From Macrostomum lignano (taxonomy: Eukaryota): 64,000 bases of DNA. The notes beneath the pieces are model-generated. The model was not told the DNA's origin, did no database searches, and was given only the letters and a program-made list of their open reading frames with translations. Positions 13,700 to 40,968 of the stretch are shown here, piece after piece. The translations under genes were made by a program, and so were the position numbers. The stretch covers positions 1,446,197 to 1,510,196 of the forward strand of contig NIVC01000038.1 of NCBI GenBank assembly GCA_002269645.1, given 5' to 3'. The first letter of the stretch is position 1. Each line of letters opens with the position of its first letter.

Positions 13700-14786
13700 C
13701 AGGAGTTGCTGGCGCCACCGTGCCTTGCAGCTCATGGCCAGTATGCCGGGATACCTGGACAGCCGGGAACCTCTGCCGGCGCTCCCCCTCTGCCCCTGGC
13801 AACGACCGCCAGCCACGCGCACGATCCGCTGCAACCTCACCGCGCCCGCTGGCGAGGCCGAGGAGACCGAAGAGCTCTCGACCGAGGTCGCTGCTAAGGA
13901 AACACTTTGGAGGCGCGCCCCGAAGGCCACCCGCAATTGCGCAGCCGATCTAGTGCTCTACACGGATGGCTCGGCCACTGACGGCTGCGCCCGCGGTGGT
14001 GCGGCCTGCGTGGTCACCAGCGGCGACCCGGCCGACCCCGAGATGGTCACGACGATCTCAGCCACCGGCTCGCCGCACACCTGCAGTTTCGATGAAGAGA
14101 GACGGTCTCTACAGCTCGCTACTAACTGGCTCCGCAACCAGCAATTCACAGGACGGGTCCTCATCTGCACGGACAGCCGCGCCCTCCTCATGGCTCTCCT
14201 GAGCGACAGGCCCCGTTGCTCGCTGCTCGACCTGGACTGCCAAGCTGCCGCCCTGGTGCTTCAATGGGTCCTGGCACACTGCGGCATCCCCGGGAACGAG
14301 CTGTCCGATGAGGCTGCCAAGCAGGCGGCCGCTGCTGATTCCGCCCCGGCACCCATCTCCTACCACAGCGCGTTGGCGACGATCAAGCGGCACTTCGGAG
14401 ACCCGCCACTCACGCACGCACGCACCGCCGCGGTTTACAGGGCCCTCAACAGGGACCGCGACCGCGCCGAGCTGCGTAGCCGACAAGACGCGGTGCTATT
14501 GACGAGGCTCCGCTCGGGACACTGCAGTTTTCTCCGCGCCTACTGCAACGTCGTCAACCCCGCCGCCGACCCGACCTGCCCGCGCTACCAAGACGGTCCG
14601 GAGGACCTGGAGCACTGGCTCAGCTGTCCGGCCCTCCGGCCCACCAGGCTCTCTATTTTCGACGAGGACGAGTTGGGCCTTTCGGTTCTGACCGCCGCCC
14701 CTGCGACGTCAGTGGCGCTTGCGAGGCGCAGCCTCCTCTGACTGGCCTCGGCGCCTGTGCCCCAACAAAACAAAACAAAAAACAAA
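13700..14786 (+). mobile_element. 5'-truncated Ingi/I-group LINE (E4): RNase H plus zinc finger
   Basis: LYTDGS, EERRSL, ICTDSR, WVLAHCGIPGNELSDE, RLRSGH, EDLEHWLSCP. Stop at 14739-14741; (AACAA)n tail followed by (GCA)n. Confidence 0.9.
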
Positions 14787-14789
14787 GCA

Positions 14790-15837
14790 GCAGCAGCAAC
14801 AGCAAGATCAAACATCAGGTTCTCGGCTGCTCGCAGAAAATCTTCCAGCAGCTGCCGGATTCACTGTTGTTGCAAAGAGCGATATGAAAGGACCGCCTTT
14901 AAAAGACGAAGGAGTCGTCAAGCTCGACTCAGATCCGAACAAGTGCATAGAAGGTTTCTTTGCGAAATTGACAAAGCCGCCCGTGAAATCTACAATTGGA
15001 ACAGAAGATACAGCTACCAAAAGGTTCATTTGAGTCATGATGATCGCCATGCATTCGAGATTGCTACAGAGTGCCACTACTGCAAGCAGAGCTTCTGAAA
15101 CTCAATAGACAAGCATCTAGACCATGATCATCTTACTGGACTCTTTAAAGGTGCTTCCTGTGCCCGATGCAACATGTCGGCTCAGCTACGGAGGCACTTT
15201 CTACCAGTGTTTTTGCACAATTTAAAAAATTACGACGCACTTAGTTTTTTCTACCGCTCTTGATCGAATACAGGACTGGAGCATCAATGTCGTGCCACAA
15301 ACATCTGAGAGGTATCTTACGATGCGAGCTGAGTTTCCAGTCGCTGAGATTGTTACGCAGAGTGGCAAGAAAAGGGTACTGAATTTCACCATCCAGTTTG
15401 TTGATACGTACCAGTTTATACGTACCATTAGAGGAATTACCTTTGTTAATTATCATTGCGCACGTTTGACCGAAGCTACTTCCTCCAACGAAACTTTTGC
15501 AGCAGCAGATTCGAATGTTCCGACCACTGAATCTCTTGTTCCAATTGACATCAACAATTTGTACGTACATGCGCTATCAATGAGACTTCCAGTGGACTCA
15601 TTTGAATGGGTGTCTAATGAAGAGCTCGAGCGATGGAATGAAATGACAATTCTTCAGTCGAGAGATGACGACGAATTCGCTTATCTATTGGAGCTGGATC
15701 TCGAATATCCAGAAATAATTCACGATGAAACCAAAGAGCTGCCTTGCACCAGAAAAGTCCACTCCAGAATTCGAAGACTTTCCAGACTTTATGAAAGAAC
15801 TGTGGTTCACGTTGCATGCTCATCAAACGTATTGTAG
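14790..15837 (+). pseudogene. polB: Decayed Polinton/Maverick-type protein-primed DNA polymerase B with endonuclease VII-like zinc insert
   Basis: Across frameshifts and stops: AFEIATECHYCKQSF..KHLDHDHLTGLFKGASCARCNM..LPVFLHNLKNYDA, IQFVDTYQF, RGITFV, SLVPIDINNLYVHALSMRLPVDSFEWV (motif A equivalent of D.NNLYG), YLLELDLEYPEIIHD. It has a large internal deletion and is 3'-truncated. Confidence 0.85.
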
Positions 15838-17254
15838 TGACTGGCTGCTAACTGGCTATTCAGCAGCATTCATTAGCTTTCCCTAAGAGTGCTGTGATCC
15901 GCTGCACAGTTGCTCAGTCCACCTCATCAAGTGAGAGAGTTACCCTGTGCTGGGCCTAAGTGTTTACTGTCCGATGACTCATCGCCTGAGCAGGCGTGGG
16001 CAGCCACACTCAATGTCTTCCCACTCGCGCTGAGGAGGCGTAGCAGGATGACTCATCACCTGCACGGAGTGTAATGGCTGCCTAGAGGGAGTAAACAGGA
16101 TGACTTGCCTCATCCGCCCAAGTTCTATTTTTAGCACAGAATAAGCGCGTGACTGTGCACACACACACACTGTACGTGGCCACTGACCTTGAGTCACGCC
16201 ACTGCTGCATGACAGGGTTGCCTTATTTGGAAGTTGGCCTTGGATCACGCGTCGCTCGCATGATTCTGAGGACCAAATAAGGAAGTTTCACGCGCTCACC
16301 ACATGAAACTCACGTGACTTTTGGGGGTCCGCTCGGCTATAAATACGGAGCATCTGGGAGCTTTTTTCTCCAGATCGCGTCGCAGCGCATCCTGCGTCGT
16401 CTCGCGAAGCTTCATGGCTAACTCTTGAAGCCTCCTCCGAGCTCTTCTCTCTCATTTCAGGTTTTTCAGGTTCGAGCAGCATCTACTAGGAACGATCGAC
16501 TGTCGAGACATTTTTCAGATTTGCCTTTGCTTTGGTCACTATGCTTTGTTGAAATCGAACAGCTCGAAGCGTCCACGTCAGGTTCCTACACTAGCGAGCG
16601 ACGTTATTTATTATGACATTTGTCAGTTTATTGAAAGTGAACTAAATTTTCTTTGTAAAGAAAAATCTAAACTATGAGTACCTTGATCAAGCTACGTTCT
16701 AAATATTTTTACAATGCTTATTTCAGAGTTCGCATACTTATTTTCAATCGGGCAATAAATTAGCCTTTCCATGCCTCAACCATTTTTAATGTTTTTACTG
16801 TCAGTGTTGCTTCACTTTTCCTGGCTTTGAAAAGCTCCTCAAGTCGCTTAACTACATGTAGCCTACTGTTAGATATCTTAGGCTCTCTAAACTAATCCAA
16901 AAGTGTGTGCACTTTTTTCAATTTGCTTAATTTGATAAGAATGTGGCCATTATGGCTATTCACCTTTTGCAGTATCTAGTTGAGTAGCTATACTGTCGCA
17001 GTTCTTGAATTACGTGTTTTTGTTTCTTTTATAAATCTTGCTTTGCATTTTACTCTACTGTGCTGCCCTTTATAAATTATCGGACTAACTTTTCATGTAC
17101 CTTACTTTCCGATACTCATTTTATTTTGACCATGTTTATATTGCTTCTTACATGTACTTTCATTTCTATGTAGTTTTTGTTTTACATAATGGTCTTACTA
17201 TCGTAAAGCGTGTCATTTAAAAAAAATAAACCGTGAAACGAACTTCAGTCCTGG

Positions 17255-17703
17255 TGTGACGCGACCCTTCTTGTTCGGTGCTGACGGCTATGCACTTATC
17301 AATAAATGAGTCTACGTAGCAAGAAAGTTTAGAATTTTAACTTCGACTGATTGTATTTAACCGTATTATATTATTTATTTGAAGACAGGAGTTAACTGTT
17401 GCTGTTAAATTATTGGTAGTAAGTACTAAGTATGGCGAATAGGCACAACGCGGCGGACAAACCAACAGCACACACGAGCCCAGCGAGACACGAAACACTA
17501 GAGAACAAAAATGCGATATAACCCACTTTTAAATAATGCAATACCCGTATTTCTATGAATGATACAGTAAAACAAATTTCATGTATAAATATAGAATAAA
17601 TTTAAGATTCGTTTAATAAATAGTAGCTAGAGTAATAATATAATACTAAAAATGCATTAATAACACTAGAATATTTTCAGAAATAAATATCAACATCGTT
17701 ACA
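17255..17703 (-). repeat. 3' LTR of the Gypsy element
   Basis: TGTGACGCG...CGTTACA. By eye it differs from the other LTR at one position (AAAAATGCATT vs AAAAAGGCATT). Confidence 0.98.
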
Positions 17704-17716
17704 CTCGCCTCTCCTC
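17704..17716 (-). other. Polypurine tract (PPT)
   Basis: GAGGAGAGGCGAG on the minus strand, immediately before the 3' LTR. Confidence 0.85.
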
Positions 17717-17849
17717 AAAAAAGCAATACAGCTACTTACAGTAGTATCGAAGCACATGACCAAAATTTAATGACGATATAAACTTATATATTGGCTATCG
17801 ACGGAATTTTAATTATAGGCTCAATTGGCCCGGAAAGTTGGCAACAGCA

Positions 17850-18097
17850 AATCGACACCGTTGGCAAAAATCGACACCATTGGCAAAAATCGAACACATT
17901 GGCAAAAATCGAACACATTGGCAAAAATCGAACACATTGGCAAAAATCGAACACATTGGCAAAATCGAACACATTGGCAAAATCGAACACATTGGCAAAA
18001 TCGAACACATTGGCAAAAATTGAGCACATTGGCAAAAATTGAGCACATTGGCAAAAATCAAACACATTGGCAAAAATCGTACACATTGGCAAAATCG
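17850..18097. repeat. 19/20-bp tandem repeat (AATCGAACACATTGGCAAAA), about 12 copies, in the Gypsy 3' UTR
   Basis: Direct periodicity; explains the ORFs at 17784-18259. Confidence 0.95.
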
Positions 18098-18563
18098 AAG
18101 CAATATTCGAACAACGAACGATCAATAGCTGGTATACCTGTAATAATATTCAATAATCAATATTTTTTTGTATTTTTTAAAAATATTTTAGAACAACTGT
18201 CAAAAGGAAATATAAAATGCAAACGGCCAATAGAGTTAAATACACGGCAGCAACTGTAATTCAACGGTGGCAAATTCAAAAGACCGGCGGCAAATTCGAC
18301 TGTCTCGGCAGCGCGGCGACAGCTTCGCCGACACAGACTGCAGCCCAACGGCCACAGTCAGACTGAACTCCTATCTAACTAAGCCATTTCTAGACAAACC
18401 TAACTAGGATCAAAAAACCCAATCCGAGGATTAAGGGCTATGATCACGGCAATAAACTAGACTAACCTACGATAAATTTAAGATGACATTTGACAATTGA
18501 ATAACGGAACCCTAACCGGCGCACAGAGAACACAGGCACACAGCACACGACACGCCAAAATCC

Positions 18564-21296
18564 CTACTCCCCGCTACCTTTACCAAAAAGATTAGCCAGC
18601 AAGGAACGAAACCTGATGGGCGGTCTAATTGCGCGCCCAGACCTTGTGGTTGTGACAGCTGGCTGTTCTTGAGTGGCTTGCTCGTGCTGTTCTGAAACTT
18701 TCTGTTCTTGTGCTACTGGTGCCTCAGGTTGTGGTTGCTCTGTCGCTTGTGCTTCAGTTCTGACTTTTTCTGGCAAATTTTCTGCAGGTTCCGTGTGTGG
18801 CTGCACGGTGTGTTCTGTGACTGGCTCAATGGCTTGCTCTGTGATTGGCTCAGTGCTTTGCTCTGTGATTGGCTCAGCAACATGTTCTGTGATTGGCTGA
18901 GTGATCTGTTCTGTGATTGGCTCTGTTGCCGAATCTGCTACTGTTCCTATGGCTGGCTCCGTGTCTGGTTCAGATACCGACTGAGCACTCTGATGCTGGA
19001 TGGAGTGCTGACTCGGAGGAGGAACGGTCTGCTGCTCACCCGGACAGACTGGACCCGGATCGAATCCTGACACCCAATCAGAGCAGTCAGAACTACAGCT
19101 CAGCTGCCTAGAGTCTTCATCACCCTGTCCTAACCTCGAGGAATGAGGCATCCTCGCAACCAATTCTAATCCAAACCTGTCGGCGACATCCTGATAACTA
19201 GACTGGCGAATGCACCTTTTCATACGATCTACATTGTAAATCTTGTGGCTCGGATTCGGAGTTTTAAACTGATTCTCACACGCTAACTCAGGAACTAACC
19301 GATAATTTCTCTCTGAAATTTTCTGCGCGACCTTGTACGGCCCAAGCCAGACCGAAGGATCGAGGCCCTTGTGGTCGGGGTTTAACACCCACACGAGCTC
19401 TCCTACCTCAAAACTAGATTTAAACACTGACCGATCGTAGTACCTCTTCTGTCTAGACTGCGCCTTCTTCCTAAAAGCTCTGGCGGTGGCAGAGGCTTCA
19501 ACTAGAGTTCGGTGGAGCAGGTGTGCATAACTGGCTGGGTCATAGCGCTCATGCCTAGGTGGGTTGTACATCAAATCTAGCGGCATCTGGAATTCCCGGC
19601 CTAAGAAAAGCTTGGCAGGCGTCATGCCGGTGGAATCGGATTCTAATGACCTAACGCTCATCCCTGCGCATCTCGCGGCAAAAGGCCAGGTCACATGCCT
19701 TTCAGCAGTGACTGCACGGACTTGACTTTTGATGGTTTGAATCGTACGCTCCACTTTGCCATTGGCCTGAGGGCGACGGGCAGTAATTCTAACAGTGTCA
19801 ATTTCTAACAAGCGGGTTAACTCGGCTACAATGCTATTGATAAACGCTGTCCCATTGTCCGAGACCAATTGCTCCATTGTGCCGTAGCGAGCAATCCACT
19901 CCGTCAGGATCGCTGCTGCGGTTGTCTCAGCAGTTACGTCTCTCACAGGAATGATTTCTAAGAATCCAGAAAATCTGTCTACCATGACAAGCAGATATCT
20001 GAATCCATCCTGTTCCGGAAATGGCCCACAATGGTCTACATGGACAACCTGATTCGGATATCCCGCTAGAGTTGGCAGCATCGGTGCTTTATTCTTGCGT
20101 TTGTTTTTCTTAGTTCTGGCGCAAATCTCGCAACTGGCAACGACACTCTTGACAACTGTTTCCAGGTTGAAAATTTGGAAGTTCTTCTTTAAGATACCTA
20201 ATGTCTTCTTGACTCCGGAATGGTTGATCAATCTGTGGTAAGAGGTCACTAATTCGTCTATGTTTGCACTCTCCGGAATGACAGTCAGTTTAGCGGCAGG
20301 CTTCCTTTTCTTAGCTGGTCTATTTCTAACTAGTACATTTTCTTCCACCGACAGCTCACCAAACATGGCCCATAAGGCTCTCAGCTCCCGGCTATGGCTT
20401 TGAAGCTCCTGCTTGGACAACCTTTCCTCTCTGCCCGCTACCGCGTTTCTAAGGTACACCACGTCAATATTCGATTCCTGCGCGCTGCGAATCCATTCTC
20501 TTTCTTTCTGCTCAGCTTCTTCCTCATCTTCACTCTCACTATCCGACCCAGAGTCTATGGCGGCTACATCGGATCTACCCGGGTCCTCCACTTGAACAGC
20601 ATGAGCCGCAGCTGGGGACCGGGTCTCTGGTTCACTTCCAGCTGTGTCCGTGCCCGCAACAGGAGTTGGGGCGGCTAAGTGCTCGCTGCCGTGGGCTAAC
20701 TCATTAACTTCAGTGAAACGCTCAGTCTGAATAGCTAAATCTACTACCGGCTTGTCCTGCGCTGGGACCGTAAATTGGGACTCAGCTTCCAGGGTCTGAC
20801 TACCCGTGGAGGCGAGGGTCTGGGTGCTACTATCGACGCTGATGCGGTTGGCTTTGACTTCACTAGGCTCCGATGGCGCTACATTTTTACCCTTCTGGAA
20901 CTTGGCTTTGAAATCTGGGATCAAGCTGCAGGTTGGGCAATCGAAATGGTCTGCTCTGAACTTGGGATTTCGACTGAGGATGTCTGCGTTAACGTGATCT
21001 AGACCGGCTCTGTGGTTCACTTGGAAATCGTACTCCGCTATCCTTTCTAGGGGCGTCTGGTCGACCTTAAACGTATACGGTTCCAGGGTGACCAACCACT
21101 GAGCTAGCATGCCGGTTGCGTGCTTCTTTGAGTGCAACCACTTTAAAGCAACGGCATCGGTTCGAACTAGGAACTCACGGTCTAGGAGATAGGTTCGAAA
21201 TTGCTCTAGCATCAAGACCAACCCTAGAAGCTCCCTCATAGTCGCACAATAATTGCGCTGCGCACTACTAAACTTCTTCGACGCGTAGGCAATCAC
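18564..21296 (-). CDS. pol: Gypsy Pol C-terminal part: RNase H remainder, acidic linker, integrase (HHCC, DDE, GPY/F), repetitive tail
   Basis: IAYASK, ELLGLV, FLVRTDA, HVNADILSR; YHRLINH..CEIC; VHVDHCGP, VSDNG, NGKVERT; WLGPYKV; terminal TRSGRAIRPP. Confidence 0.95.
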   Translation of the reverse strand: MIAYASKKFSSAQRNYCATMRELLGLVLMLEQFRTYLLDREFLVRTDAVALKWLHSKKHATGMLAQWLVTLEPYTFKVDQTPLERIAEYDFQVNHRAGLDHVNADILSRNPKFRADHFDCPTCSLIPDFKAKFQKGKNVAPSEPSEVKANRISVDSSTQTLASTGSQTLEAESQFTVPAQDKPVVDLAIQTERFTEVNELAHGSEHLAAPTPVAGTDTAGSEPETRSPAAAHAVQVEDPGRSDVAAIDSGSDSESEDEEEAEQKEREWIRSAQESNIDVVYLRNAVAGREERLSKQELQSHSRELRALWAMFGELSVEENVLVRNRPAKKRKPAAKLTVIPESANIDELVTSYHRLINHSGVKKTLGILKKNFQIFNLETVVKSVVASCEICARTKKNKRKNKAPMLPTLAGYPNQVVHVDHCGPFPEQDGFRYLLVMVDRFSGFLEIIPVRDVTAETTAAAILTEWIARYGTMEQLVSDNGTAFINSIVAELTRLLEIDTVRITARRPQANGKVERTIQTIKSQVRAVTAERHVTWPFAARCAGMSVRSLESDSTGMTPAKLFLGREFQMPLDLMYNPPRHERYDPASYAHLLHRTLVEASATARAFRKKAQSRQKRYYDRSVFKSSFEVGELVWVLNPDHKGLDPSVWLGPYKVAQKISERNYRLVPELACENQFKTPNPSHKIYNVDRMKRCIRQSSYQDVADRFGLELVARMPHSSRLGQGDEDSRQLSCSSDCSDWVSGFDPGPVCPGEQQTVPPPSQHSIQHQSAQSVSEPDTEPAIGTVADSATEPITEQITQPITEHVAEPITEQSTEPITEQAIEPVTEHTVQPHTEPAENLPEKVRTEAQATEQPQPEAPVAQEQKVSEQHEQATQEQPAVTTTRSGRAIRPPIRFRSLLANLFGKGSGE

Positions 21297-21303
21297 CTGT
21301 TCT

Positions 21304-24300
21304 TTACCGTTCCTGTCTAGCTGGGAAAGGACTGGGAAATGGGAAAGGACAGTTCCCTTGCTGAGAAAGGGAACTGTCGCAGTCTAGGATGAAGGTACCC
21401 GCGCTAGGACTCAAGTCTGGGTAGGTCAACACTGGCGGCTCACACAGGCTCGCCTTCAGTTCCTGAAACGCATTCTCGTGAACTTGGCGCCAGACAAATT
21501 TCTCTGAACTTTTGGCTAAGGCGTACAGAGGCGTGGCTATGATAGAAAACCTGGGGACAAACTTTCTGTAATAATTAGCAAACCCCAGAAAGGATAACAG
21601 CTGCTTTTTGTCCCTAGGGGTACACCACTGTCGCACTGCTTCCGTCTTGGTGGGGTCCGCTTCAATCCCTCTCGAGGAGACCACGAATCCCAGAAACCTA
21701 AGCCTGTCTTTGAACAATTCACATTTAGATGGCCTGATCTTCAAGTTGGCTTTCCTAAGCTGCCAGAAAACAAGCGCTAGGTGGGATATCATCTCATCGT
21801 TATTCCTAGCCTTGATGATGATGTCGTCAAGGTAAATCAGGCTGACTCGCAACAGCAGTGGTCTGAAAACCTTATGCATAAGCTTAGCAAAACTGGCTGG
21901 GGCGGTCTTTATCCCGAAGGGAACAACGGTCCAACGGAAAGTCCCCTGAGGGCAGGAAAACGCGGTGAGATCGCGGTCAGCTTCCCTGATTCCTACTTGC
22001 CAGTACGCGCTCGTCAGATCTAAGCTGCTGAATACGCTGGAGCCCGCCAAACTATCGAATGACTCTTCTATCAGCGGCACAGGAAATGAGCACGGCTTTA
22101 TGTGCTTGTTTAGGGCGCGGTAGTCTACGCACAGGCGATACGTACCGTCCTTCTTTTTCACAAGCACAATTGGCGAAGACCAGTCAGAGTCACACTCCTC
22201 AACCACTCCCTGATCTAAAAGCTGGGCAATATGCTTGTCTAAGAACTCTTTCTGGGCCGGCGTTGTCCGCCTGGACGGTTGGGAAATCGGGCGGCAACTC
22301 GGGTCTTTGAGCTCGATCGTCATCTCATGCAGCGTGGTCTTGCCTAGATCTGTTTCGGACTGAGAAATTTGACTAAGGAAATAATTTAACATTTTTACGG
22401 TGGTATCCAGCTGCTTCTTAGTTAGGTTAGAGTCTAGCAAATTGAACTGGTTCATTAGCCACTTGGCTGTTCCTGGGTCTGGGTAGGGTAGTCTTGCCAG
22501 CTTGTCGTTAAGCAGATCTACCTTGTCGAAGCTGAAATCGCTTTCGTTTAGCCGGGTGCACACCACGCTCTCGTCGTCCCCTAGCTTCTTAAATGACGCT
22601 ACCTCCTCACCCTTGGCAACAGTAATCTCTTCTTCACTGCTATTCAGGACCCTAACTAACACGTGGCTGGTGGGGCTGACCTGGTCTAGAGAATTAGCGA
22701 CCACGATGGCCGAATCTGAATTGAACAGCCTCGCGCTGACAACCCCATGGGCGTTGCTCTCGGCGTCTATGGCTCTAGCTGGGACCAGGGCTTCTGAGCG
22801 CGGCGGCAGGACCGTGTCGCAAGCGGCGACCACACGGTTCACGCTACAGATGTCACTAGATCCCCGCAGGGTTGGGACATTCTCCCCTGCGCAAGTCACA
22901 CGGTCACAGGCCATGTCCATGACAATTTGGAAACTGCTGCAGAAATCCAGTCCTAAAAGCGTCTCACTCAGGGAGCCATCGATAACTAGGAAAATATGCT
23001 GCTTCTTCAGTTTGCCTAAGCTCAACTCACACTCGAGCTTTCCCAGGATTTCTGAGCTGGCTCCGTTGAACCCAGTCGCAGTTCGCTGGATTTGGGCGGG
23101 GGTGAAGACATTATTGATGGGATCCGCCTCTACTAGCCTGTCTCTTATCTTGGGGCAAATCAGCGATGCATTGGCTCCAGGATCCAAAAGGGCCACGGTC
23201 TTCGTCTCTCCGACCTCAATCTGAACATAAAATCCCGCCTTGTAGTGGGGCAGGTCGGAAGAGGCCTCCGCACACTTGGGGTCTACCGAATCTGCAGTCA
23301 CGCTGATGGCCCGGTCCCTGGTCTTTCCAGCTTCAGCAACTCGGCCGAAGGTCACATGGGTGCCCACTAGCTGGTGGTTTAAGGCCAGGTCCATCAGGGG
23401 CTGCACTAGCTGGGACAGGTGCACGAAAACTGAGTCTCCGATTTGGGAGGACCGGACGAACCCGTAGGAATCCTTCCAGTGGGTCACTACCCCCCTCTCT
23501 CTGGGCGGTCTCGGGCTCGACTTCCCTCTGTCCTTTGGGTCGACGAACGGCTGCGGAGCCCTGAACTTCGAAGGTGGCGCACTGGCACCCGGCTCTCTGG
23601 GATAGGGACACTCTGCGATCAGATGGTCTGTCTCCCCACACCTAAAGCACTTCGGTGGCCTACGGTTCTTGTGATTATAGTTACTGGAGTTCAGGACATG
23701 CTGCGGTGGCTGAAAACTCTGGGCTCCAGGGTGTCTATTGTCGTTTACTGTCGTTTGCTGCTGACTTGACTGTTTCCTTTCAAGCTCCTTGATCCTTGCC
23801 TTCAGGGCTTGGATCTCGTCTGACTCAACACTACGGACTTTCGGCGGTTCTGCTAATTTGAGTAATTGCCTAGTTTGGGCGGCGTCTCGTGCCCTGTTTA
23901 AAAGTCTTTCGAGAGACGGCCTTGGCTTCTCTTGCAGCAAATTGATTAACTTTTCTGCGATTGACTTGTCAGTTAACCCATAGCAAAATCGCGTCCTAAC
24001 TAAAGGCTCGTACTCATTGCGGCTTAAGTTCGCAGAGTTAGCAAGGCTAACGAGGCGATCGAAATATTCTTGAATACTTTCAGACTGCAGCTGCTGGGCG
24101 GAGGTAAGCTCTATATAAAACTGGTCCACATGCGTTGGTTCGCCGTACCGACCCTTAAGCTGCTTAACACCGGTTTCGAAAACTTTCTCGTGCAGTCTCT
24201 GGTTATAGAAGTACTCTTGGCACTCTGGCGACAACGATGACAGCAGTACAGCTGTCCAGTGCTCGCGTCCTATGTTATTCGCTTCTAAGTACAGGCTGAA

Positions 24301-24648
24301 CTGGGTCCACCAAATTTCGAATTTCATTTTGGGCGAATAGGCGGCTGGGGGCCTGAGCCGAGGGCTCGACTTTGAATACTTCACATTGTCACGGATCTCT
24401 GCCAAAGTTCTGGCCAGATCGCCCAGGGAAGTCTCGCACTCCTGCAGGTCACCTTCATCTGTCTCCGCCTCGTCATCACCAGCTGTCTCTGACAATCTAA
24501 TTTTACTGCCTACTGTCTCGCTTCTACCTCCTAGCTCTGTCTCCCCATTCCCACCTCCTGGCTCTGTCTCTCCACTTCTGCCTGTCCTAGCTCCACTCGC
24601 TGCTGGATCCTCTGTACTTGGCTTGGCTACCGACTCGGACTCTGCCAT
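21304..24648 (-). CDS. gag-pol: Gypsy Gag-Pol N-terminal part: capsid, CCHC knuckle, cold-shock domain, protease, RT, start of RNase H
   Basis: CFRCGETDHLIAECP; LLDPGA; WSSPIVLVKKKDGTYRLCVDYRALN; LDLTSAYWQ; PFGIKTAP; YLDDII; FILDCDSS. Separated from the downstream ORF by a net +19-nt lesion near 21320-21378. Confidence 0.95.
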   Translation of the reverse strand: MAESESVAKPSTEDPAASGARTGRSGETEPGGGNGETELGGRSETVGSKIRLSETAGDDEAETDEGDLQECETSLGDLARTLAEIRDNVKYSKSSPRLRPPAAYSPKMKFEIWWTQFSLYLEANNIGREHWTAVLLSSLSPECQEYFYNQRLHEKVFETGVKQLKGRYGEPTHVDQFYIELTSAQQLQSESIQEYFDRLVSLANSANLSRNEYEPLVRTRFCYGLTDKSIAEKLINLLQEKPRPSLERLLNRARDAAQTRQLLKLAEPPKVRSVESDEIQALKARIKELERKQSSQQQTTVNDNRHPGAQSFQPPQHVLNSSNYNHKNRRPPKCFRCGETDHLIAECPYPREPGASAPPSKFRAPQPFVDPKDRGKSSPRPPRERGVVTHWKDSYGFVRSSQIGDSVFVHLSQLVQPLMDLALNHQLVGTHVTFGRVAEAGKTRDRAISVTADSVDPKCAEASSDLPHYKAGFYVQIEVGETKTVALLDPGANASLICPKIRDRLVEADPINNVFTPAQIQRTATGFNGASSEILGKLECELSLGKLKKQHIFLVIDGSLSETLLGLDFCSSFQIVMDMACDRVTCAGENVPTLRGSSDICSVNRVVAACDTVLPPRSEALVPARAIDAESNAHGVVSARLFNSDSAIVVANSLDQVSPTSHVLVRVLNSSEEEITVAKGEEVASFKKLGDDESVVCTRLNESDFSFDKVDLLNDKLARLPYPDPGTAKWLMNQFNLLDSNLTKKQLDTTVKMLNYFLSQISQSETDLGKTTLHEMTIELKDPSCRPISQPSRRTTPAQKEFLDKHIAQLLDQGVVEECDSDWSSPIVLVKKKDGTYRLCVDYRALNKHIKPCSFPVPLIEESFDSLAGSSVFSSLDLTSAYWQVGIREADRDLTAFSCPQGTFRWTVVPFGIKTAPASFAKLMHKVFRPLLLRVSLIYLDDIIIKARNNDEMISHLALVFWQLRKANLKIRPSKCELFKDRLRFLGFVVSSRGIEADPTKTEAVRQWCTPRDKKQLLSFLGFANYYRKFVPRFSIIATPLYALAKSSEKFVWRQVHENAFQELKASLCEPPVLTYPDLSPSAGTFILDCDSSLSQQGNCPFPFPSPFPARQER

Positions 24649-25737
24649 GACCTTGGCAGCTAAGTATTACAGACACAGAGTACAGACACACTGGCAGGCA
24701 ACTAAAAGAGGGAACCCAGCAAGAAAAGAGCTAAGAATAAGAGAGAAAGTGGCAGCTTATAAAATAACTTAGCTATTGAGTCTCAATCTGTAAGCAATCC
24801 TATTATAGTTACTGCCACAATAGGCCCTATTCTACTTGACAAAAATGATGAATTCAGTCTTAACTGCGACGCTGAACTGCGGGTCCGGCCGTTGAAGGAG
24901 CTCGCCGCTCGCCAGGTCACTCGGTTCACCGCTCGGTTCGGTCTGTCTCAGCTCGGCTCGACTCGACTCGACTCGACTCGACTCGACTCGACTCGACTCA
25001 ACACAGCTCGACTCGCCTCGGTCGCTGACGCTGCCCAGCACTGGCCGGCGTTATCGATGGTCACCGCTGGCTGTAGGCTTAGGCTGAAGTCGCAGGCTGA
25101 TGAGTGATGACAGATTGCACTTGCACTGTTGACTGCAGTAGGCCCTCGCGCAGGTTGCAATCACAGGCAGTGTCCAATTGTAGCTGCAGCGGGCGCTTTA
25201 CCGGTGCGGCGCTCTCAACTCAATTAAAAATGAGGAGTACTCGCAAGCAGACAGACAAAAACACGATCCGATGACTCAGCAGACTTGTTGACAGATTTTG
25301 CAGAATTAGGCTGGCCTTGGGTTGGTACAAAACTGGTAAACAACTTAAGCCTTAGGGTTATTTCTTGACTTGTATTAGCCTCTAGGTCCGACAGACTAGC
25401 AAATTTGTGTTGACGATTGTCACGTGACTAATTGGCTGGCTGGGTTGGCTGCGGGTGGATGGCCTTGGCTTTGATCGCGTGACTTGGGGGTTGTTGTCCA
25501 GTTCAGAGTTGGCCGCCAAAGCGTAAACTGGTTCAGACCGGTTTTCTAGATCGGCAGACAGTACGCTCAGTACTTTGCAGTGGCGCTAGCAGATAGGCGG
25601 CTGACTGAGGTACAGGCAATGTCACTGGCAGTGGCAAGTTGGCTTCCTGTTGTCGACTGCAGATTGCATACGATGCAGATGGTTAGCAATGGTTGTCGGC
25701 GATGTAGATTGCAGGCTGGGTCAATTTTAATTTAGCC

Positions 25738-25755
25738 ATCTCGGTGGGACCTCCA
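25738..25755 (-). other. Primer-binding site complementary to the tRNA-Gln 3' end
   Basis: Minus strand TGGAGGTCCCACCGAGAT is the complement of ATCTCGGTGGGACCTCCA, the conserved metazoan tRNA-Gln 3' end as I recall it. It lies 6 nt from the 5' LTR. Confidence 0.85.
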
Positions 25756-25761
25756 AAATAA

Positions 25762-26210
25762 TGTGACGCGACCCTTCTTGTTCGGTGCTGACGGCTATGC
25801 ACTTATCAATAAATGAGTCTACGTAGCAAGAAAGTTTAGAATTTTAACTTCGACTGATTGTATTTAACCGTATTATATTATTTATTTGAAGACAGGAGTT
25901 AACTGTTGCTGTTAAATTATTGGTAGTAAGTACTAAGTATGGCGAATAGGCACAACGCGGCGGACAAACCAACAGCACACACGAGCCCAGCGAGACACGA
26001 AACACTAGAGAACAAAAATGCGATATAACCCACTTTTAAATAATGCAATACCCGTATTTCTATGAATGATACAGTAAAACAAATTTCATGTATAAATATA
26101 GAATAAATTTAAGATTCGTTTAATAAATAGTAGCTAGAGTAATAATATAATACTAAAAAGGCATTAATAACACTAGAATATTTTCAGAAATAAATATCAA
26201 CATCGTTACA
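25762..26210 (-). repeat. 5' LTR of the Gypsy element
   Basis: 449 bp, near-identical to 17255-17703. Confidence 0.98.
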
Positions 26211-26263
26211 CTGGATTTGCTCAACCATTTTCAAATCACTTAATTTGCAGAAAACCTTCCAGT

Positions 26264-26530
26264 TTATTTATTCATGGACAAACTGAGACAGCAAGCATTG
26301 CAAAAAATTGAATCAGATCGTAGCATACGCATAGATTTCGCGCCACAGAGAATGTAAGACCCAGTGTGAAAAAGTAAGCACTTGTAGTACTGAATTTTGC
26401 AGGAAAGTGCAGAAAAAGTTTCTGGTTTATACTGAACCTTCTGTACCATCATAGCTAAAGCAGAAAGAGGCAGCACATTGTTAATTTCAAGTCTTCCACG
26501 AGCAGTAATAGTTTTAATTCGAACACAAAG
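26264..26530 (-). pseudogene. Divergent TATA-binding-protein-like repeat in the Polinton relic
   Basis: IKTITARGRLEINNVLPLSALAMMVQKVQYKPETFSALSCKIQYYKCLLFHTGSYILCGAKS aligns by eye to a TBP core repeat (..YEPELFPGLIYRM..LLIFVSGKVVLTGAK). Confidence 0.65.
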
Positions 26531-26534
26531 TTAG

Positions 26535-26877
26535 CACATTGAACTCTGTTTATATTGCCTCGGAGCCAAAAGCCATTTGTTTTAATCTCTCGAAACAAAT
26601 TATAAACCAGAGATTAAATTTTAGGTTTCCAGCCGAGGGAGTTGAACAACTCAATGGAATTTCCTTGCCCAACATAGCATACCACCCAGTGACCAAATGA
26701 GCCATTCTGCTGAAGTAGGACAAAAACAAACTTGTTTTCAAGGTAAATTGATGATCGAAATTTTCTTTTTACATTCAAGGGCAGAGAATTTTTATAGCGC
26801 AAATGTAAAGTAACTATGAGAAATTTTTGGCAACACGAAAATTTTCTGACAGGATCAAATAGCTGAATTGCGTCCAT
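26535..26877 (-). pseudogene. Polinton adenain-like cysteine protease, decayed
   Basis: MDAIQL.. and GHWVVCYVGQGNSIELFNSLG (His motif; usual FDS reads FNS), in-frame stop at 26614, then NINRVQC. The ATG is 5 nt after the capsid stop, the MCP-PRO order typical of Polintons. Confidence 0.75.
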
Positions 26878-26882
26878 TCCAG

Positions 26883-27385
26883 TTAAGAGGAATAGTCTAG
26901 CAAAAGCTCTCGGTGCTTGGTGACCTCAATCAGCGATTCATACAGGCACATAACAATCAGGGACACCGCTTCATTCAGAGCCTGTTGGAGGCGAATCTCC
27001 ACCGCAGGTTGCCCTCCTTCTGTCCGTACCACAGAGCCGCTCCCTCGGGTGTGAGATCGAATGCAAACACCGTGTTGTTGTTGGAGGGGATAGGGGATCC
27101 ACGGAACCGAATTCGTGTGGCTTGCAGATTGACAGCTTTTTAGGTAGTGTAAGTAGTATTCTCTTACAAAGGATTTGTTTTCAGGTGTGAAGGCGCCGTG
27201 GCACACTGTTTCTTCACCTTTCTTTAGAGCCAACCGGCTGAGGTTGAAGCTCTGGAACTGGAACGGGCTCGAGTGATGATGACCATTGAATGCTCGGTGG
27301 CTCACGAAGGCCAGCATGATGAACTTCGGCAATTTTTAATGAAAGAATCCTTCAATGTTTTTAGACTTGATACCCTGGGGTCGAT
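26883..27385 (-). pseudogene. Polinton major capsid protein (PY) C-terminal third
   Basis: KLPKFIMLAFVSHRAFNG..SPFQFQSFNLSRLAL..; AVEIRLQQALNEAVSLIVMCLYESLIEVTKHRELLLDY matches the PY C-terminal consensus. One frameshift. Confidence 0.85.
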
Positions 27386-27762
27386 TAGTGAGTGTGGCTG
27401 TGAATGAGGCAGTGAATGAGGCTGTGATAGTGAGTGAGGCATATTGTACCTAATCTACGTTTCATGCTGGTTAATGCGCATGTTTTATTTTGAATATAAG
27501 TAATTTGGTGTCAAAATGAGTCACTACTGAAGTGAGGCAGTCCACCCCTTTGAGTCTAAAAGCATAGTGGATTTGACACGTACTATGAACGTGAAATATT
27601 TTGACCACCCCATTTCGAACCAATGAAAATTAGAGTGAACTTGTTGATGTCGAACATAAAGTCGAACATGATGTCGAATATAAAATGGGACTTCAGTTGG
27701 CCTTTCAAAGAACCAGATTTCTAATTGTCAATTAATTTCACTTTTTCAATAAATTAATCCAA

Positions 27763-30005
27763 ATGTCCAAACAATTGGAGTTCATAAAACAGCTGATAAG
27801 CCGCAAAGGCAAATGCTATGACGTCGCTAAGCGGCAAAAGTCGTTTGAGAAAGAGCTCGCCGCGTCTGATCGATTCCAGTTAATGGTAAGTGAAGGTGAA
27901 GAGCAATATTTTTACCAATAACTGCCCTGTCTCTACCATTCTGCTCTGTCTCTACCATTCTGCCCTGTCTCCACTTCTGCCCTGTCTGTACCAATTTCTA
28001 CCAACAACTGCAATTTTTCTACTCAGACCGATACGTCACAACCCGGCTCAGCTGAGCAGCCGCCCGCCGCAGCTCAGCAGCCGCCCGGTCCAGCTGAGCA
28101 GCCCAAGTCGCGTGCCGGGCAGGAGTACATTTGCCCATTCGGTGACTGCCTGCCAATAAAAGAGTCCCGTTTTAGTGACCACATGAAAAGAGCGCATCTG
28201 AATCTGCTCGAAGAGACGAAACAAAATCTGGCAAAGGATGGGGTTCCTGCATTTCTTCTACACAAAAGAGCCCTCCAGATTCTGCGTGCTTCTGGGAAGC
28301 TCAACACGCATCAGCTGACTGCCGGCCCAATGGCAGAGAAGGCGGTACAGTGCGACATCTGAGGCGAGTGGCGCAACGACAGAAATTTGCTGGCGAGCCA
28401 CACACACAACAGCCACCCAGACGCAGCAAGAGCTGCAAAGGAGCAGAAGCTGGCTGAGGCCAGAAGCAGAGTGCCGGCTAGACCAGCCGTGGCCGAGCAC
28501 CCGTCGACAGACGACGTTTAGGCACTCTGTGCGTTCTTGGCCAGCTCTCTCGGTGGGCGCAAGAAGCCGGCAATGGTACTCGAAATTCGGTGCTACCTGA
28601 AGTGGCTGATGCGTTCACTTGACATAGAGTCATTCAACTCACTGGTCATCGAAGACCAGCGCGACCGAATCAGCGCATATTTGGACAACCAGACCTACCC
28701 GATCCTCAAGCAGAGCGTCTCAGAACTCGAAAAAGTCGGCAACTTTCTGGTCACCCGACGCTATCAGCAAGTGATTGATGATGGGCTGCTGCAGCACCTA
28801 AAATCGTACAGGCAGTCGACAAAAAATTGGACTGCTAGTTCCATGGGTCCCAAGGCGAAATATTACGCGGACCTGATGGACCGGAAAGAAGAAGAGCTCC
28901 TGACCGGCGACCAAATTAAGGCCGTCTTCGAAATGAAGACCACCGTACTGGAGGAGGCTAGGTGCACAAAAGACCGGTGCGTTCTTATAATCTTTGAAAT
29001 GGCACTCAGTTTTGAAAATGGCACTTAGTTTTGAAAATGGCACTTAGTTTTGAAAATGGCACTTAGTTTTGAAAATGGCGCTTAGTTTTGAAAATGGCAC
29101 TTAGATTTTGAAGTGGCACCTAATCTTTGAAATGGCACTTAATCATGGGATTAAAAAATCTTGGCCTCAACATTGACACAGGACGGTGACATTCCTGGCC
29201 ATCAGGATGTGCATTTGTTTCGGCGATGGAAACGCTAAACCGGCAGGGCGTGGCCTCCGCCTGCAAAATTTCGGACGCACGCCGGTGGCTGAAGTCGCCG
29301 AATGAGCCTTTTGAAGTTATAGAGCACAAGTCAAATGAGGGCCACGGCTCAGCGTGGGCAAGTGTAACACCGTGCGCAGATTTGGTGATGCAGGTCCTGG
29401 TGCAACGATTTGCGAAGAGCCCGAGCGACGACGCTCAGGCGTTTGTATTTCGGTACGGCTCATTGGACCGCCTATTTTACCAGGATAGAAAACGGTACTC
29501 ACCGCTGCTGAACAATGTCACTATTTCTAAATTCCGCGAGTGGCTGGAAGTGATGGGCCTGGAAAACGCCACGGCGGAAGAACAGCGCTTGATGGCAGAT
29601 CACCAGAACCACACCGAAGGAGTGCAGCGCCGCTTTTACCATGTGAGAATTAATCAATTTGTCTTTAAAATCGCTTCACGAGCTAGGAATTTCTCAAGCT
29701 CTTTGAAAGGCTTCACTATATAGTATTTTGTGAAGTTTAGTGTTTATGAAACAAAAAGCTCCGAATAAGAATGTATTTTAAAAATTAAGTTTGCTTTTAT
29801 TATTATTAACATTTTCATCCCACCACGCAATCTAATCAGACCCAGACTAAGAAAAGAAGAGAGAATGACCGCCAGCTCACAAAGCGACTGGTCACAGAGG
29901 GCGCCGGCGTGCGTGAAGAGGACGTCAACGCCAAGGCTCCGCTGCTCGGCAATGACCTGCAATCGGCTGCTGGCAGCTTAGCGAGCAGAATTACCAGCGC
30001 CGCCA
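27763..30005 (+). pseudogene. Intron-containing C2H2 zinc finger plus tyrosine recombinase gene (Crypton-like), decayed
   Basis: Exons 27763-27885, 28027-28976, 29182-29642 and 29840-30005 with GT-AG ends. C2H2 motifs YICPFGDC..SDHMKRAH and QCDI*GE..SHTHNSH. YR motifs LNRQG (Arg), EHKSNEGHGSA (Lys), SKFR, HQNHTEGVQRRFY (His, Tyr at 29637). Stops near 28358 and 28518; frameshift near 29200. Confidence 0.75.
28990..29145. repeat. 20-bp tandem repeat (AAATGGCACTTAGTTTTGAA) inside the recombinase intron
   Basis: About 7 copies between donor 28977 and acceptor 29181. Confidence 0.9.
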
Positions 30006-30049
30006 GTGAGTGCATTATTGTTAAATAAGCTTTGTGAATTGAGATTTTC

Positions 30050-30320
30050 GTGAATTTTGACCTCAGTGAACTTTGTCAATTTGGCCAAGTGAATCAGGAC
30101 CTCAGGACCCTAGGTTACTATGAGTTGCTCAGAACTGAGGACGGTGTACGCAAGGTAGACTTATCTATGGGGCAGACTGATCCAAAGGTAGTCTTGCCCA
30201 AGTCTCTGGATAGTGAAGTATTTCACCAAATCCATGATTCACCGTTAGCGGGACACCTAGGTCGAGATAAAACTTTCCAGAAAATTAAAACTCGATTCTG
30301 GAGGCCAGGATTAGCAACAG
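30050..30320 (+). mobile_element. Short fragment of another Gypsy pol (integrase HHCC region)
   Basis: VVLPKSLDSEVFHQIHDSPLAGHLGRDKTFQKIKTRFWRPGL is the His-His half of the integrase zinc-binding domain. Confidence 0.85.
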
Positions 30321-30329
30321 CAGTTATAT

Positions 30330-30666
30330 CGATATATCTGACTCCAGCGATGAGCCGAACGATACGCAGGCTATAATCACTGTACTTCGCTCAAACCAGC
30401 GTCTGTTGCTGCTAAAGCCGGGCAAATTAGTTCTAGCTAAGTCAAAGGGTCACCAATACTGGCCAGCAGAAGTGACGAAGCGCCCAAGGTCAGGAACATA
30501 TTTAAAAAAACATCATAATAAGTCATGCGACTCGATTCACGTGCTCGAGCCTCGCACCCGTGACTGGGTTAACGACTTCAAGCCATTTTTTCCGATTTCG
30601 AGCAGCGAAATGCCCGATGACCTTAAAAAAGCCTTCGACCTGGTCAAGTTAAGAATGAGCAAATAA
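30330..30666 (+). CDS. PWWP-domain exon/ORF, probably the 3' end of the recombinase gene
   Basis: KPGKLVLAKSKGHQYWPAEV...DFKPFF...DLKKAFDLV fits the PWWP pattern (PGDLVWAK..GYPWWPA). Same strand as the YR gene; exact splice join unresolved. Confidence 0.7.
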
Positions 30667-30793
30667 GTTTTCAAAGTCCTTACTTGCATGTACGGGGCCA
30701 CTAGCAAAAAAGAGAAAAAATAGTTTATATAAATGTGAAGTGCACTTTCTAGTCTGAACAGGACCAAAGCTCACACAGCTATCTTTTACATGC

Positions 30794-30927
30794 AGTTTAG
30801 GGAATGGGTTCTGTCACAATTTGCATGGCAGTTTAGTGAATGGGCTCTGTCACAATTTGCATGGCAGTTTAGTGAATGGGTTCTGTCACAATTTGCATGG
30901 CAGTTTAGTGAATGGGTTCTGTCACAG
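30794..30927. repeat. 36-bp tandem repeat (GCAGTTTAGTGAATGGGTTCTGTCACAATTTGCATG), about 3.7 copies
   Basis: Direct periodicity. Confidence 0.9.
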
Positions 30928-33900
30928 TTTTGTTAATTACTTGATATAACGTGAAGTGCACTTTTTAAGTTAAAGTCTGAACAGGTTCATTGTCTCCATC
31001 TTTTTGAAACCGCATTTTGTTAGATTTGATATTAACGTGAAAAGCACTTAAGTTAAAGTCTGAACAGGTTCATTATCTCCATCTTTTAAACTGTTAAAAC
31101 TACATAGTTAATTGTTTCTAATGAAATAAATATTTAAAAATTTACAAGGACAATTTTCGTTGCTTTCAAGGCATTGAATTTTTTTCTTCAGAATTAGAGT
31201 TTTAAATTTTTCATTTGGATAGGATAAAACATAAAATCATGCTTAAAGTTATCTAACGTATATGGCTTTAATGTTTCACACCTACAAAGACTCTATAGCT
31301 AGTTAGCTATTGTGACAAGGTTAAGATATTTACATGTAGGAGTATAATAGGAAGATAAGAAATATAGGATTTCGATCGATTGATGACAAATATTTATTTG
31401 ACACAATTCTCACAGCTCAGGCATTTTAGTGAACAAACAAGTTCTGTTCTGTCACACTTTGCAATGCAGGGGCTAAATCATCTAAATCAACTAGTAGGCA
31501 GCACTGAATCCAGCCTATCAATCCATGTATATTTTAAATAACTGAATATGGTTTTGCTCACTTGCTCATGCAGGATATAATACCCCGCTTTGAGAGAAAA
31601 AGCAATTTTTTCGACTTTTTTAAAGTTCAAAACAGTTTGTTATTGTCAGAGAACAATTTTTTAATCGATTCGAACTCTTTTGTACAGAAGTAGTACTACA
31701 GATAACACAGCTAGCAGATGAGAGATGTTTGTGACGTTGTCAGTTTCAGTAGCCCCGCCAAGGGCCGTTTGGACATACGGTACCAATATTTTAATATTAC
31801 TAGTTCCGTATTCTCACGTTTACTGTAAGTAGTGCCCTAGGAATCTAATCAGCTGCGTACAATTGTAACCCCGCGTTCAGCGCGCGATCAATAATTTCTG
31901 TTCTTGTTTTTCTCAGTCAGCCAATAGAAATACGCCGCATTAATTATACTAATTTCTCTCGCGCGCCACCCCCAGCCCGGTCCTTATCAGTTCTGTCTGG
32001 CCGTGCGCTCGGGCCCCACTCTCCTTTCGTCCCTTTGCCTTAGCTCCGCCGCCACCCCGTCTGGGGCCTTCGCCTGTTTAGACTTCGTTAGACTCTCGCA
32101 CCCTTGCGAGCCCGTGTAGCTTGTAGGCTCTGACTGCCTTTGCTTGATCATTTGCCTTCTCTCCGCCACGATTTTAGCCACGCTATTGCCACTCCAAGTC
32201 ACGCCACTGCTACTACTTAAACTATTTGCTCTATTGTTGCGTGGTTGCCAGCGCATTGTTAATCAAAGTACAAGACGTAATAATAAACTAAATCTGCAGC
32301 CAACGTTCGCAATAACGCTGATCCATTTACTGCCAAGTGCTACCGCTACAATTCCGCTTTCACTACATTATTTGCCTTCGCTTGTTCTCGAGACCACCAC
32401 GACAATATCGTCACAATGTTGAAAGTCAGGCAATGCATTAATAAAATAGAAGTTTTGTTGTTGTCTAAGTGCTATCCAACTATTAAGCGCCCTTTTACGC
32501 TTCAAAATTCTCATTTTAATTTTTTTTGAAATTCTAGAAGCGATCAAATCTAGTTCGTCACATTTAGTTCCTGTTAGCTATATTTATATCTTATTCGTAC
32601 ACTTGCATTTTGACTTAATACGTATTTTGTGCACTTTTTGTTAAGGAAAGGAATTAAAAATTGTTCAAATTATATACGAAAAAATCATATTAGCTTAACT
32701 ATGTGCAACTACGTGAGCCAAACGTGACCAACATAATTACCTAATAATAATGAGAGCTCATTTTCTTAATTGAGCATTCGACGTTTCGATGTTCTGTATG
32801 TTCTCATACAGTCATAAACCAAGAGTTAGAATAAGAGTTCATATAAAACAAACACATTTTTAGCAATAAAATTGTGTGATCATGATCCCAAGAAGCTTAA
32901 TATACTGTAAAATATTTTTAATTCAGCTATCAGAATGAGCTATAGCTACTGGCGAAGTACCATATCATGATTTGTCCTTCCTAAATAGTCTGAAGTAGGC
33001 CAAAAAGGACGGAATTTTATAGCTGAATCTGTAATATTTCGCATTCTGTCATATTCTGCAATAAAGTTTTTCCTATCTATTTTTTTCTGTCACATTGTCA
33101 TATTTCAACATTTCTGTCACAATGTATACCCATGGATTAGTTTAGAGGCTAGACCAGCAAGAGAGCGTCTTGCTCCAGATAGATTAACTGTCAGGCCAAA
33201 TCAGAAAAGTTATTCACAGAGGATAGCGGCGTTGTTTAACCCATTTAACCTATTACAGCCTAAGAACAAATTAACAATGGCCGACGCCCCATTGCGAGTA
33301 TATGCTAAGAAGAAAATCTACGGCCAAAAGAGAAGGCATAAAGAGCAGGAAGACAACGAGCTCCCGCGAGTTAGGGCCGTACACATAGCAAATCAAGAAG
33401 AACAATGTAAGAAGCACAAGCTGAGAGAAGAAGATAGCGAGCCGAAGGGGAATTTAGTTATCAATGTAGATTGATAACGCTCTTCATGGAGGAGATCCGG
33501 TAGCAGGAAGGAGTAGATCCCATCGACGAACAGGACGAGACCAACTGACGTGCCGGCCAGAGTAGAGCCAGCCTGGGCCTGCACCAGACTCGCTCGTAAA
33601 CTACGCAACACTACTCAGTGGACCTGGGCGAGGAGCCAGCCCCTGAGAGGACCGAAAGCAAACGGCAGGACAGCCCCGGCACGCAGGTGCGAAATTTGCG
33701 CAGGTGCCGCCGCGACCTTAAGCGATTTATTCTAACAACGGGACGAACGGGATAATTCAAGGCCGAGTTATCGGAGGCCTGCATTCAATTACTGGCCACT
33801 ACCCCGCCGGCCACTACCCCGCCGAAGCGGTAAGGTGCTTCGAGATCACCTGCTCTTACTGCTTGCAGTACGCGGAAGGAAAGGTGAGAGGTTTAATTTG

Positions 33901-40579: not shown

Positions 40580-40968
40580 TTAGAAATGGCCAGCTTGACA
40601 GAAATGATCAATGGCACCCAGAGATTATCAAACTAGTCACCTGGCTCTACGTTGAACTGGGATTACCACTCTTCAACTCCTGTCTTATCAACTTCTATGA
40701 AGATGGTAACACGACTATTCCATGGAACGCCGACAACGAGCCTGAGCTTGGAGTCAACCCTACTACGCTCGTATAGCCTCTATCTCGTTAGGTGCTCAAA
40801 GAGAGTTAGTAGTCAAGGCCAACACCTCAAAAATATTGTGTTCAAACAACACCTGGCCAGCGGCAGCGTTCTCATTATGAGTGGCTCAACCCAGCAGCAC
40901 TTCTAACATTGCATCACGAAGGACCCAAAGGTCAAAAATATGAGAATCGACTTAACTTTCCGAACAAC
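40580..40968 (+). pseudogene. AlkB-family (ALKBH2/3-like) 2OG-Fe(II) dioxygenase domain, C-terminal two-thirds
   Basis: FNSCLINFYEDGNTTIPWNADNEPELGVNPT / IASISLGAQRE / LASGSVLIMSGSTQQHF*HCI / MRIDLTFR correspond to the HxD, H and RxxxxxR motifs. Two frameshifts and one stop. Confidence 0.9.

Follow-up and report, generated by a model that had tools for sequence, protein, structure and literature searches.

We found that a truncated open reading frame (ORF) on the minus strand of Macrostomum lignano DNA (positions 26264..26530 of the 64,000-nucleotide stretch analyzed here, hereafter the window) encodes the C-terminal lobe of a TBP (TATA-box-binding protein) family gene, the 5′ half of which is missing, and that this gene is very probably element-borne. 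Judging from its sequence and its neighbors, the ORF would be the C-terminal half that remains of an accessory gene carried by a Polinton (an adintovirus-type endogenous element), and the intact gene would encode a compact protein of the TBP family, with two lobes and a length of about 190 aa. The residue pattern of this protein gives it roughly even chances of having acted as an element-encoded promoter factor with altered specificity that uses the host's TFIIB; granted that the gene is element-borne, such a role becomes the somewhat favored one.

The ORF runs from stop to stop, encodes 88 aa and contains the peptide quoted in the initial annotation of this locus. The Pfam TBP model (PF00352) covers residues 4–71 of the peptide (E = 7.5e-8; 32.5 bits, with a curated cut-off of 22.9), and its PDB matches at E ≤ 1 comprise 35 distinct sequences, all of which are TBP or TBP-containing chains (best E 2.1e-9). 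The data therefore supports the annotation's assignment of the peptide to the TBP family. As a comparison, a TBP profile of 72 rows scored the peptide at 57.4 bits, versus 6.6 bits for the next best of the 1482 window ORFs and 10.1 bits for the best of 2000 shuffled sequences; the control is somewhat favorable, as the 72 rows lie outside the Macrostomum family and yet were retrieved with the peptide as the query. The TBP match is not a chance hit. When the 88-aa peptide was used in a word-index search among longer proteins, none of the 28 candidates passed.

The peptide aligns only to the second lobe of intact relatives (residues 111–181 of the relative P0003, with 53.5% identity over 71 residues; identities to lobe 2 of the intact relatives are 42–46%). 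A profile built from five two-lobed relatives detected no first lobe in any of the 1482 window ORFs, leaving the window copy with a single lobe and short of a two-lobed saddle. Because only lobe 2 aligns, lobe 1 is absent and two reading frames meet at a junction (26527..26541, minus strand; three-frame translation and inspection of the junction bases), the deletion suspected in the initial annotation is supported, and it would have taken the end of a protease-like gene, approximately the first 105 TBP codons and anything between them. The last protease-like codon is a Gln codon at 26541–26539, about ten bases before the TBP frame opens at 26530; the exact breakpoint within 26527..26541 could be fixed only with an intact copy. 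Thus, the two frames do abut on the same strand, as had been noted, and the description of the TBP-like gene as directly downstream of the protease is correct for the present arrangement. However, this adjacency was produced by the deletion, and it is therefore not evidence of the original gene order. Another possibility, in which a short look-alike would mark an earlier start of the TBP frame, farther upstream, was set aside, though not disproved, because the other frame holds, up to the junction, what we take to be the protease's Gln motif.

The protease-like frame itself (26539..26877, minus strand) is a putative adenain-like cysteine protease relic, so designated from presumed motifs, its position after the capsid gene and a weak Pfam match. 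It begins with an ATG at 26877, 5 nt after the capsid stop codon, and is interrupted by an in-frame stop at 26614–26616. It retains what we take to be the His-Trp and Gln motifs, and the region of the catalytic Cys is missing. Its match to Pfam SidE_DUB, presumably a member of the same protease clan, is weak (E 0.09–0.24, below the cut-off). A search for relatives confirmed none of 31 candidates at E ≤ 1, no match was found in PDB, NCBIfam or PHROG, and a single-sequence fold had a pLDDT of 49, making it unusable.

The window copy of the TBP-like gene is a dead pseudogene, because there is no start for its lobe, it sits on a long end branch in both of the trees described below (0.71–0.79) and it carries Lys at the first stirrup Glu site, where all six relatives have Glu. 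Poly(A)-signal-like AATAAA hexamers extend over its last codons and stop (26263..26272, minus strand), with a putative role as poly(A) signals in this AT-rich region.

On the other side of the protease-like frame lies the 3′ relic of a double-jelly-roll major capsid protein gene (26883..27335, minus strand), which is frameshifted and lacks its 5′ part. The ESM Atlas relates this relic at 0.95 to a cluster in which 34% of members carry PF21738 and at 0.93 to a Capsid_NCLDV cluster, with a recognition value of 1971, under the tool's mark of 2300, that lends moderate support to the assignment; the relic has no Pfam match. About 50 bp past the TBP stop, the locus is split by the insertion of a young Gypsy-type LTR retrotransposon (17255..26210, minus strand) that carries protease, RT, RNase H and integrase domains. 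Its LTRs (17255–17703 and 25762–26210) have TG..CA ends and are 99.8% identical over 451 nt, and a 4-bp target duplication, CTGG, is present at 17251–17254 and 26211–26214.

With the Gypsy element set aside, a putative Polinton-type protein-primed DNA polymerase relic with an endonuclease VII/HNH-like insert (14850..15886, plus strand) ends about 1.4 kb from the TBP stop. The polymerase relic contains stops, frameshifts and an internal deletion. Its exonuclease and polymerase motifs were picked out by eye and are presumed to be such, and neither a PolB profile nor a PDB entry matched. The insert matches Pfam Endonuclease_7 (E 2.7e-5, above the cut-off) and PHROG endonuclease VII (E 2e-5), and HNH inserts in Polinton pPolB have been reported (PMC10748475; this and the other papers are cited from their available portions). 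The DNA between the polymerase relic and the Gypsy site (15887..17254) gave no Pfam match at E ≤ 0.5 in 12 frames over 15890–17251. Within it, at 16290–16620 (plus strand), there are E-box-like and TATA-like words, a splice-acceptor-like stretch and a short frame, again with no Pfam match.

No Polinton integrase or ATPase was found among 74 selected window ORFs, most of them picked from 134 listed, or among 15 flank frames, the only integrase pieces in either set being those of retroelements; the Polinton relic is cut on both sides. No inverted repeat better than E 0.12 was found between 14700–17254 and 26211–31000, and the terminal ends of the Polinton have probably been lost. Overall, the sequence supports a position of the TBP-like gene within what appears to be a Polinton in an advanced state of decay, with the capsid module on one side of the gene and the polymerase relic on the other.

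We then turn to the relatives of the gene. A HMMER search with the window peptide over 1.84 billion representatives returned 76 matches at E ≤ 0.001. The top match, P0001 (named chitin synthase; 3397 aa with 38 repeats), was discarded as an artefact of its repeats. The best matches after it are P0002 (Macrostomum lignano PAA54323.1, 51%) and P0003 (193 aa, 45%), and a search with P0003 added P0079, P0080, P0081 (M. lignano PAA46374.1, 190 aa) and P0082. The two-lobed relatives are stand-alone proteins of 183–202 aa that are mutually 48–73% identical, and the family is represented by four M. lignano records. To obtain the DNA context of the relatives, bacterial and archaeal genomes were scanned twice, and none of 232 and none of 73 pattern matches were confirmed. 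In a third M. lignano model, P0083 (UniRef A0A1I8GZI1), the first TBP-like lobe is fused to residues 1–70, which presumably resemble a Polinton gene; as these N-terminal 70 aa have no Pfam or NCBIfam match and no homolog in the window, the fusion was not counted as a link to Polintons.

A second M. lignano locus provides an indirect link of this kind, through one gene model. In the model of P0002, the TBP-like lobes are joined to a 145-aa domain whose structural neighbors include a 46%-viral cluster, with Preplasmiviricota the commonest (TM 0.86), DEDD exonucleases and a Maelstrom lead at 0.87. Several published maps of adintoviruses bear a MAEL label (Supplementary Fig. S2 of PMC8502044). The initial annotation's proposal that the gene is part of a Polinton is thus supported at two places, by a MAEL-like adintovirus-type gene joined to it at the second locus and, in the window, by the capsid and protease relics flush with it and the polymerase relic beyond. 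The family may also be numerous. M. lignano transcripts clustered at 95% share a name prefix (PMC5730564) and, given the suffix g17 under this naming scheme, Mlig021525g17 would point to 17 or more transcribed loci that are nearly identical.

The same observations bear on whether the gene came to its present position by chance, as a fragment of an unrelated element or a processed pseudogene that landed in Polinton debris. Mobile elements nested in one another crowd the window, and the original order of the genes is obscured by the junction, both of which are compatible with such an event. However, inspection of the bases at the junction between the TBP-like and protease-like frames revealed no spacer DNA, poly(A) tail or target duplication, the GC contents of the TBP-like ORF and the protease relic match (0.375 and 0.36), Polinton genes lie on both sides and the neighbor at the second locus is of adintovirus type. 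Consequently, we consider a chance juxtaposition very unlikely.

The initial annotation had put forward the presence of two repeats as a point to be checked, and the relatives do have two lobes. P0081, P0003 and P0002 each contain two PF00352 stretches, and the AlphaFold2 model of P0081 (40-row alignment; mean pLDDT 96) is two-lobed. The model is closest to cellular TBP (best TM 0.84; Z 20.7, 1.7 Å over 173 residues), with a lower best TM of 0.75 when compared to viral models (BFVD).

Residues were called from a 79-row alignment with a plant TBP as the reference. The C-lobe Phe pair is kept in all seven family rows, the first Asn/Val is kept, and the stirrup Glu-x-Glu, a predicted TFIIB contact, is kept in all six relatives. 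Other positions have changed. The first N-lobe Phe column holds Pro, with an adjacent Trp, in the five complete N-lobes (the register is uncertain by one residue), and this Trp may stand in for the missing Phe. The second N-lobe Phe is replaced by Tyr (6/6), the second central Asn is replaced by Thr (7/7), so that the second Asn-x-Val reads Thr-x-Thr/Ser, the specificity Pro is replaced by Ser or Thr, and both Thr sites hold Cys or Ser. The four Phe sites read Pro-Tyr-Phe-Phe in each of the five complete relatives, while all four are Phe in 56 of the 79 rows. Compared to a canonical TBP, the family therefore has the Glu-x-Glu stirrup (in all six relatives) and lacks the four intercalating Phe residues. 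The suggestion that this Polinton lineage carries its own basal transcription factor holds as far as a TBP-type gene in a Polinton is concerned, but the word basal needs a qualifier, as the DNA-binding face differs from that of canonical TBP.

We compared this pattern to the TBP-related factor TRF2/TBPL1, which has three of its Phe residues changed, including to Trp and His, while the Macrostomum family has two changed and keeps the third Phe (PMC4180970). The TRF2 signature is carried by no row among the 79, and TRF2 membership was ruled out on it, as the family has Tyr at the second site while the third and fourth are both Phe. A trypanosome TBP-family protein has lost the same first two Phe residues (PMC4180970). 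Both TRF2/TBPL1 and the trypanosome protein are cellular genes, unlike the apparently element-borne Macrostomum family.

The 79-row tree combines 75 of the 76 HMMER matches, three further relatives and the window copy; four rows were trimmed, and P0001, near-duplicates and two half-lobe models were left out. In this tree, the family forms one clade (100/100) on a long stem, sister to nine compact proteins (93/84, unstarred), and a 45-row tree groups the family, the compact proteins and one further row at 96/87. Both unconstrained trees place the family apart from the canonical eukaryotic TBP rows, in a sampling with no Macrostomum TBP or TRF2 among the rows, and long-branch attraction may affect them. 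A tree that forces the family together with five canonical eukaryotic rows (one of them named and four labelled by eye) is worse by 10.4 log-likelihood units, a difference that does not lead to its rejection (p-AU 0.121).

That the forced grouping is not rejected, in trees built with no Macrostomum TBP or TRF2, gives some room for a different origin, whereby a fast-evolving host TBP paralog, possibly derived from TRF2, is carried as cargo, or host genes have been domesticated from the element, with no role in the element's cycle in either case. Part of lobe 1 presumably resembles TRF2 as well. Host cargo genes are carried by Polintons (PMC11131425), and the intact M. lignano records come from an RNA-supported annotation (PMC5730564). 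Even so, we consider a host paralog unlikely: Pro-Tyr-Phe-Phe differs from the TRF2 pattern, both free trees place the long-stemmed family beside compact proteins that share its Asn-to-Thr change, and the gene has Polinton-type neighbors at two separate loci.

The nine compact proteins (P0005, P0018, P0026, P0045, P0046, P0047, P0059, P0063 and P0076; 170–176 aa) were picked before the tree was built, as BLAST neighbors of P0005. Thr at the second Asn site is found in all 16 rows of the family and the compact proteins, versus none of the 63 other rows. One compact protein has four near-identical copies, on contigs of 106–645 kb, which fits a mobile gene. A broader, tentative possibility is that the whole Thr-x-Thr/Ser clade, which would so far have gone unrecognized, is carried by animal Polintons across several hosts, to which it might give a private promoter code that their own TBP reads and that the host's TFIIB and RNA polymerase II serve. 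On that reading, a single protein would act as a late-transcription switch, in contrast to the herpesvirus complex of several proteins and to the pairs of viral TBP and TFIIB in giant viruses. P0012 and P0078 (UniRef T1KX62 and T1KP89), two compact TBP-like proteins of Tetranychus urticae that are 97% identical, form a long branch outside the Thr-signature group; they are possibly mobile-element genes too.

Viral TBPs are well known, and TBP is already named in one figure legend for a MELD (Polinton-like) virus (Fig. 5 legend, Starrett et al. 2021, PMC8502044). The likeness is that a TBP-like gene occurs there in a DNA virus of middling size whose polymerase is of the Polinton type. The difference is that, in the available portions of that paper, the abbreviation appears in the legend only, in a section on non-animal datasets, with no residue or functional analysis; the text of its animal adintovirus maps (Fig. 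S2) bears no TBP label. TBP has also been found in mirusvirus-like elements (PMC10675990). Some polintoviruses carry a VLTF3-like late transcription factor (PMC11131425) and, like the element described here, thereby have a transcription factor of their own, but this factor belongs to an unrelated family that is shared with giant viruses. Our literature searches, with most subscription papers and Repbase outside their scope, found no account of a TBP gene in animal Polintons. TBP and TATA are absent from the main texts of PMC11161782, PMC10748475 and PMC11131425, and from part of the supplement of the last, and the available text of PMC12220804 has no relevant mention.

The TBPs of Nucleocytoviricota resemble the Macrostomum family in having a virus-borne two-lobed fold with the C-lobe Phe residues kept (PMC7221094; BFVD). 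In TBPs, the Glu stirrup residues are TFIIB contacts, and Phe-to-Tyr changes alter TATA binding (PMC7221094). In most viral TBPs the glutamates that contact TFIIB are gone, and a virus-encoded TFIIB accompanies them, and the first stirrup Glu is about 40% conserved among TBPs of large dsDNA viruses (PMC7221094). In contrast, the Macrostomum family keeps both Glu residues in all six relatives and occurs in a small element for which neither a TFIIB nor an RNA polymerase is known. Another viral TBP mimic with a changed DNA face is KSHV ORF24, the vTBP of beta/gamma-herpesviruses (PMC12529657), which we propose as a working analogy for late-gene promoters. In ORF24, all four Phe residues are present, the TFIIB-binding Glu residues are absent, and the TBP-like part is a domain of a large protein that binds the polymerase directly (PMC12529657). 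The Macrostomum relatives have the opposite pattern and are stand-alone proteins of about 190 aa. The relatives thus differ from the ORF24 type both in their stand-alone size (183–202 aa) and in having both Glu residues.

Based on these comparisons, we propose a mechanism in which the intact protein would bind the minor groove of an AT-rich DNA element through its intact C-lobe Phe pair and kink the DNA, at least by the C-lobe. The changes in the N-lobe Phe pair, in the second central Asn/Val and in the specificity Pro would make the protein read a non-canonical site instead of the canonical TATA box. Its retained Glu-x-Glu stirrup would then recruit the host's TFIIB and RNA polymerase II, directing the host polymerase to the element's own promoters, most plausibly those of the capsid-module genes. 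To our knowledge, Polintons encode no RNA polymerase.

The same residues could serve a different purpose, as an element-borne decoy that has little affinity for DNA and sequesters host TFIIB, TFIIA or the regulators of TBP (Mot1, NC2, TAF1), with the outcome that host transcription is damped or host TBP is shielded on element promoters. The protein-contact surfaces do look better kept than the DNA face, including the stirrup Glu pair in 6/6 relatives and a basic helix in lobe 1, while changes have occurred at both N-lobe Phe sites, at one Asn, at the Pro and at the two Thr sites; TATA binding has been reported to be lost along with these Phe residues (PMC4180970). However, the C-lobe Phe pair, the first Asn/Val and the basic strand residues have been retained, and across proteins of 48–73% identity the altered sites of the N-lobe are still aromatic (Tyr and a nearby Trp), which looks like a selected DNA surface. 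A decoy is therefore, in our assessment, rather unlikely, and a promoter factor with altered specificity is the reading we prefer.

For Polinton biology, a TBP variant that keeps the contact with host TFIIB while its DNA face is changed would be a direct handle on the timing and direction of Polinton transcription. Intact, apparently transcribed copies exist in M. lignano, which is a model with transgenesis. More generally, entries named "TATA-box-binding protein" in invertebrate annotations can be mobile-element genes.

The window contains several other elements. In the gag-pol frame of the Gypsy retrotransposon (21307–24666, minus strand), residues 391–457 form a cold-shock-domain-like stretch (Pfam CSD, E 7e-4, 19.8 bits, below the cut-off of 27) that sits between the zinc knuckle and the protease. 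Unassigned frames at 28522–30666 (plus strand) end in what we take to be a tyrosine-recombinase-like motif, with no Pfam match; after them come a zinc-binding piece of an integrase and a PWWP domain (E 1.1e-6). Fragments of AlkB-like 2OG-Fe(II) oxygenases occur at 40549–40903 and 48063–48428 (both plus strand; E 1.6e-4 to 4e-3, below the cut-off). A non-LTR reverse transcriptase precedes each fragment by about 2 kb, and the fragments are perhaps parts of LINE families that carry AlkB. At 5910–6547, terminal inverted repeats of 116 nt (98%) surround the remnant of a helix-turn-helix/paired-like transposase, forming a short Tc1/mariner-type element. Long tandem arrays are present at 111–495, 1255–2100, 2343–4080 and 57558–58270, with units of 35, 20, 18 and 23 nt, respectively.
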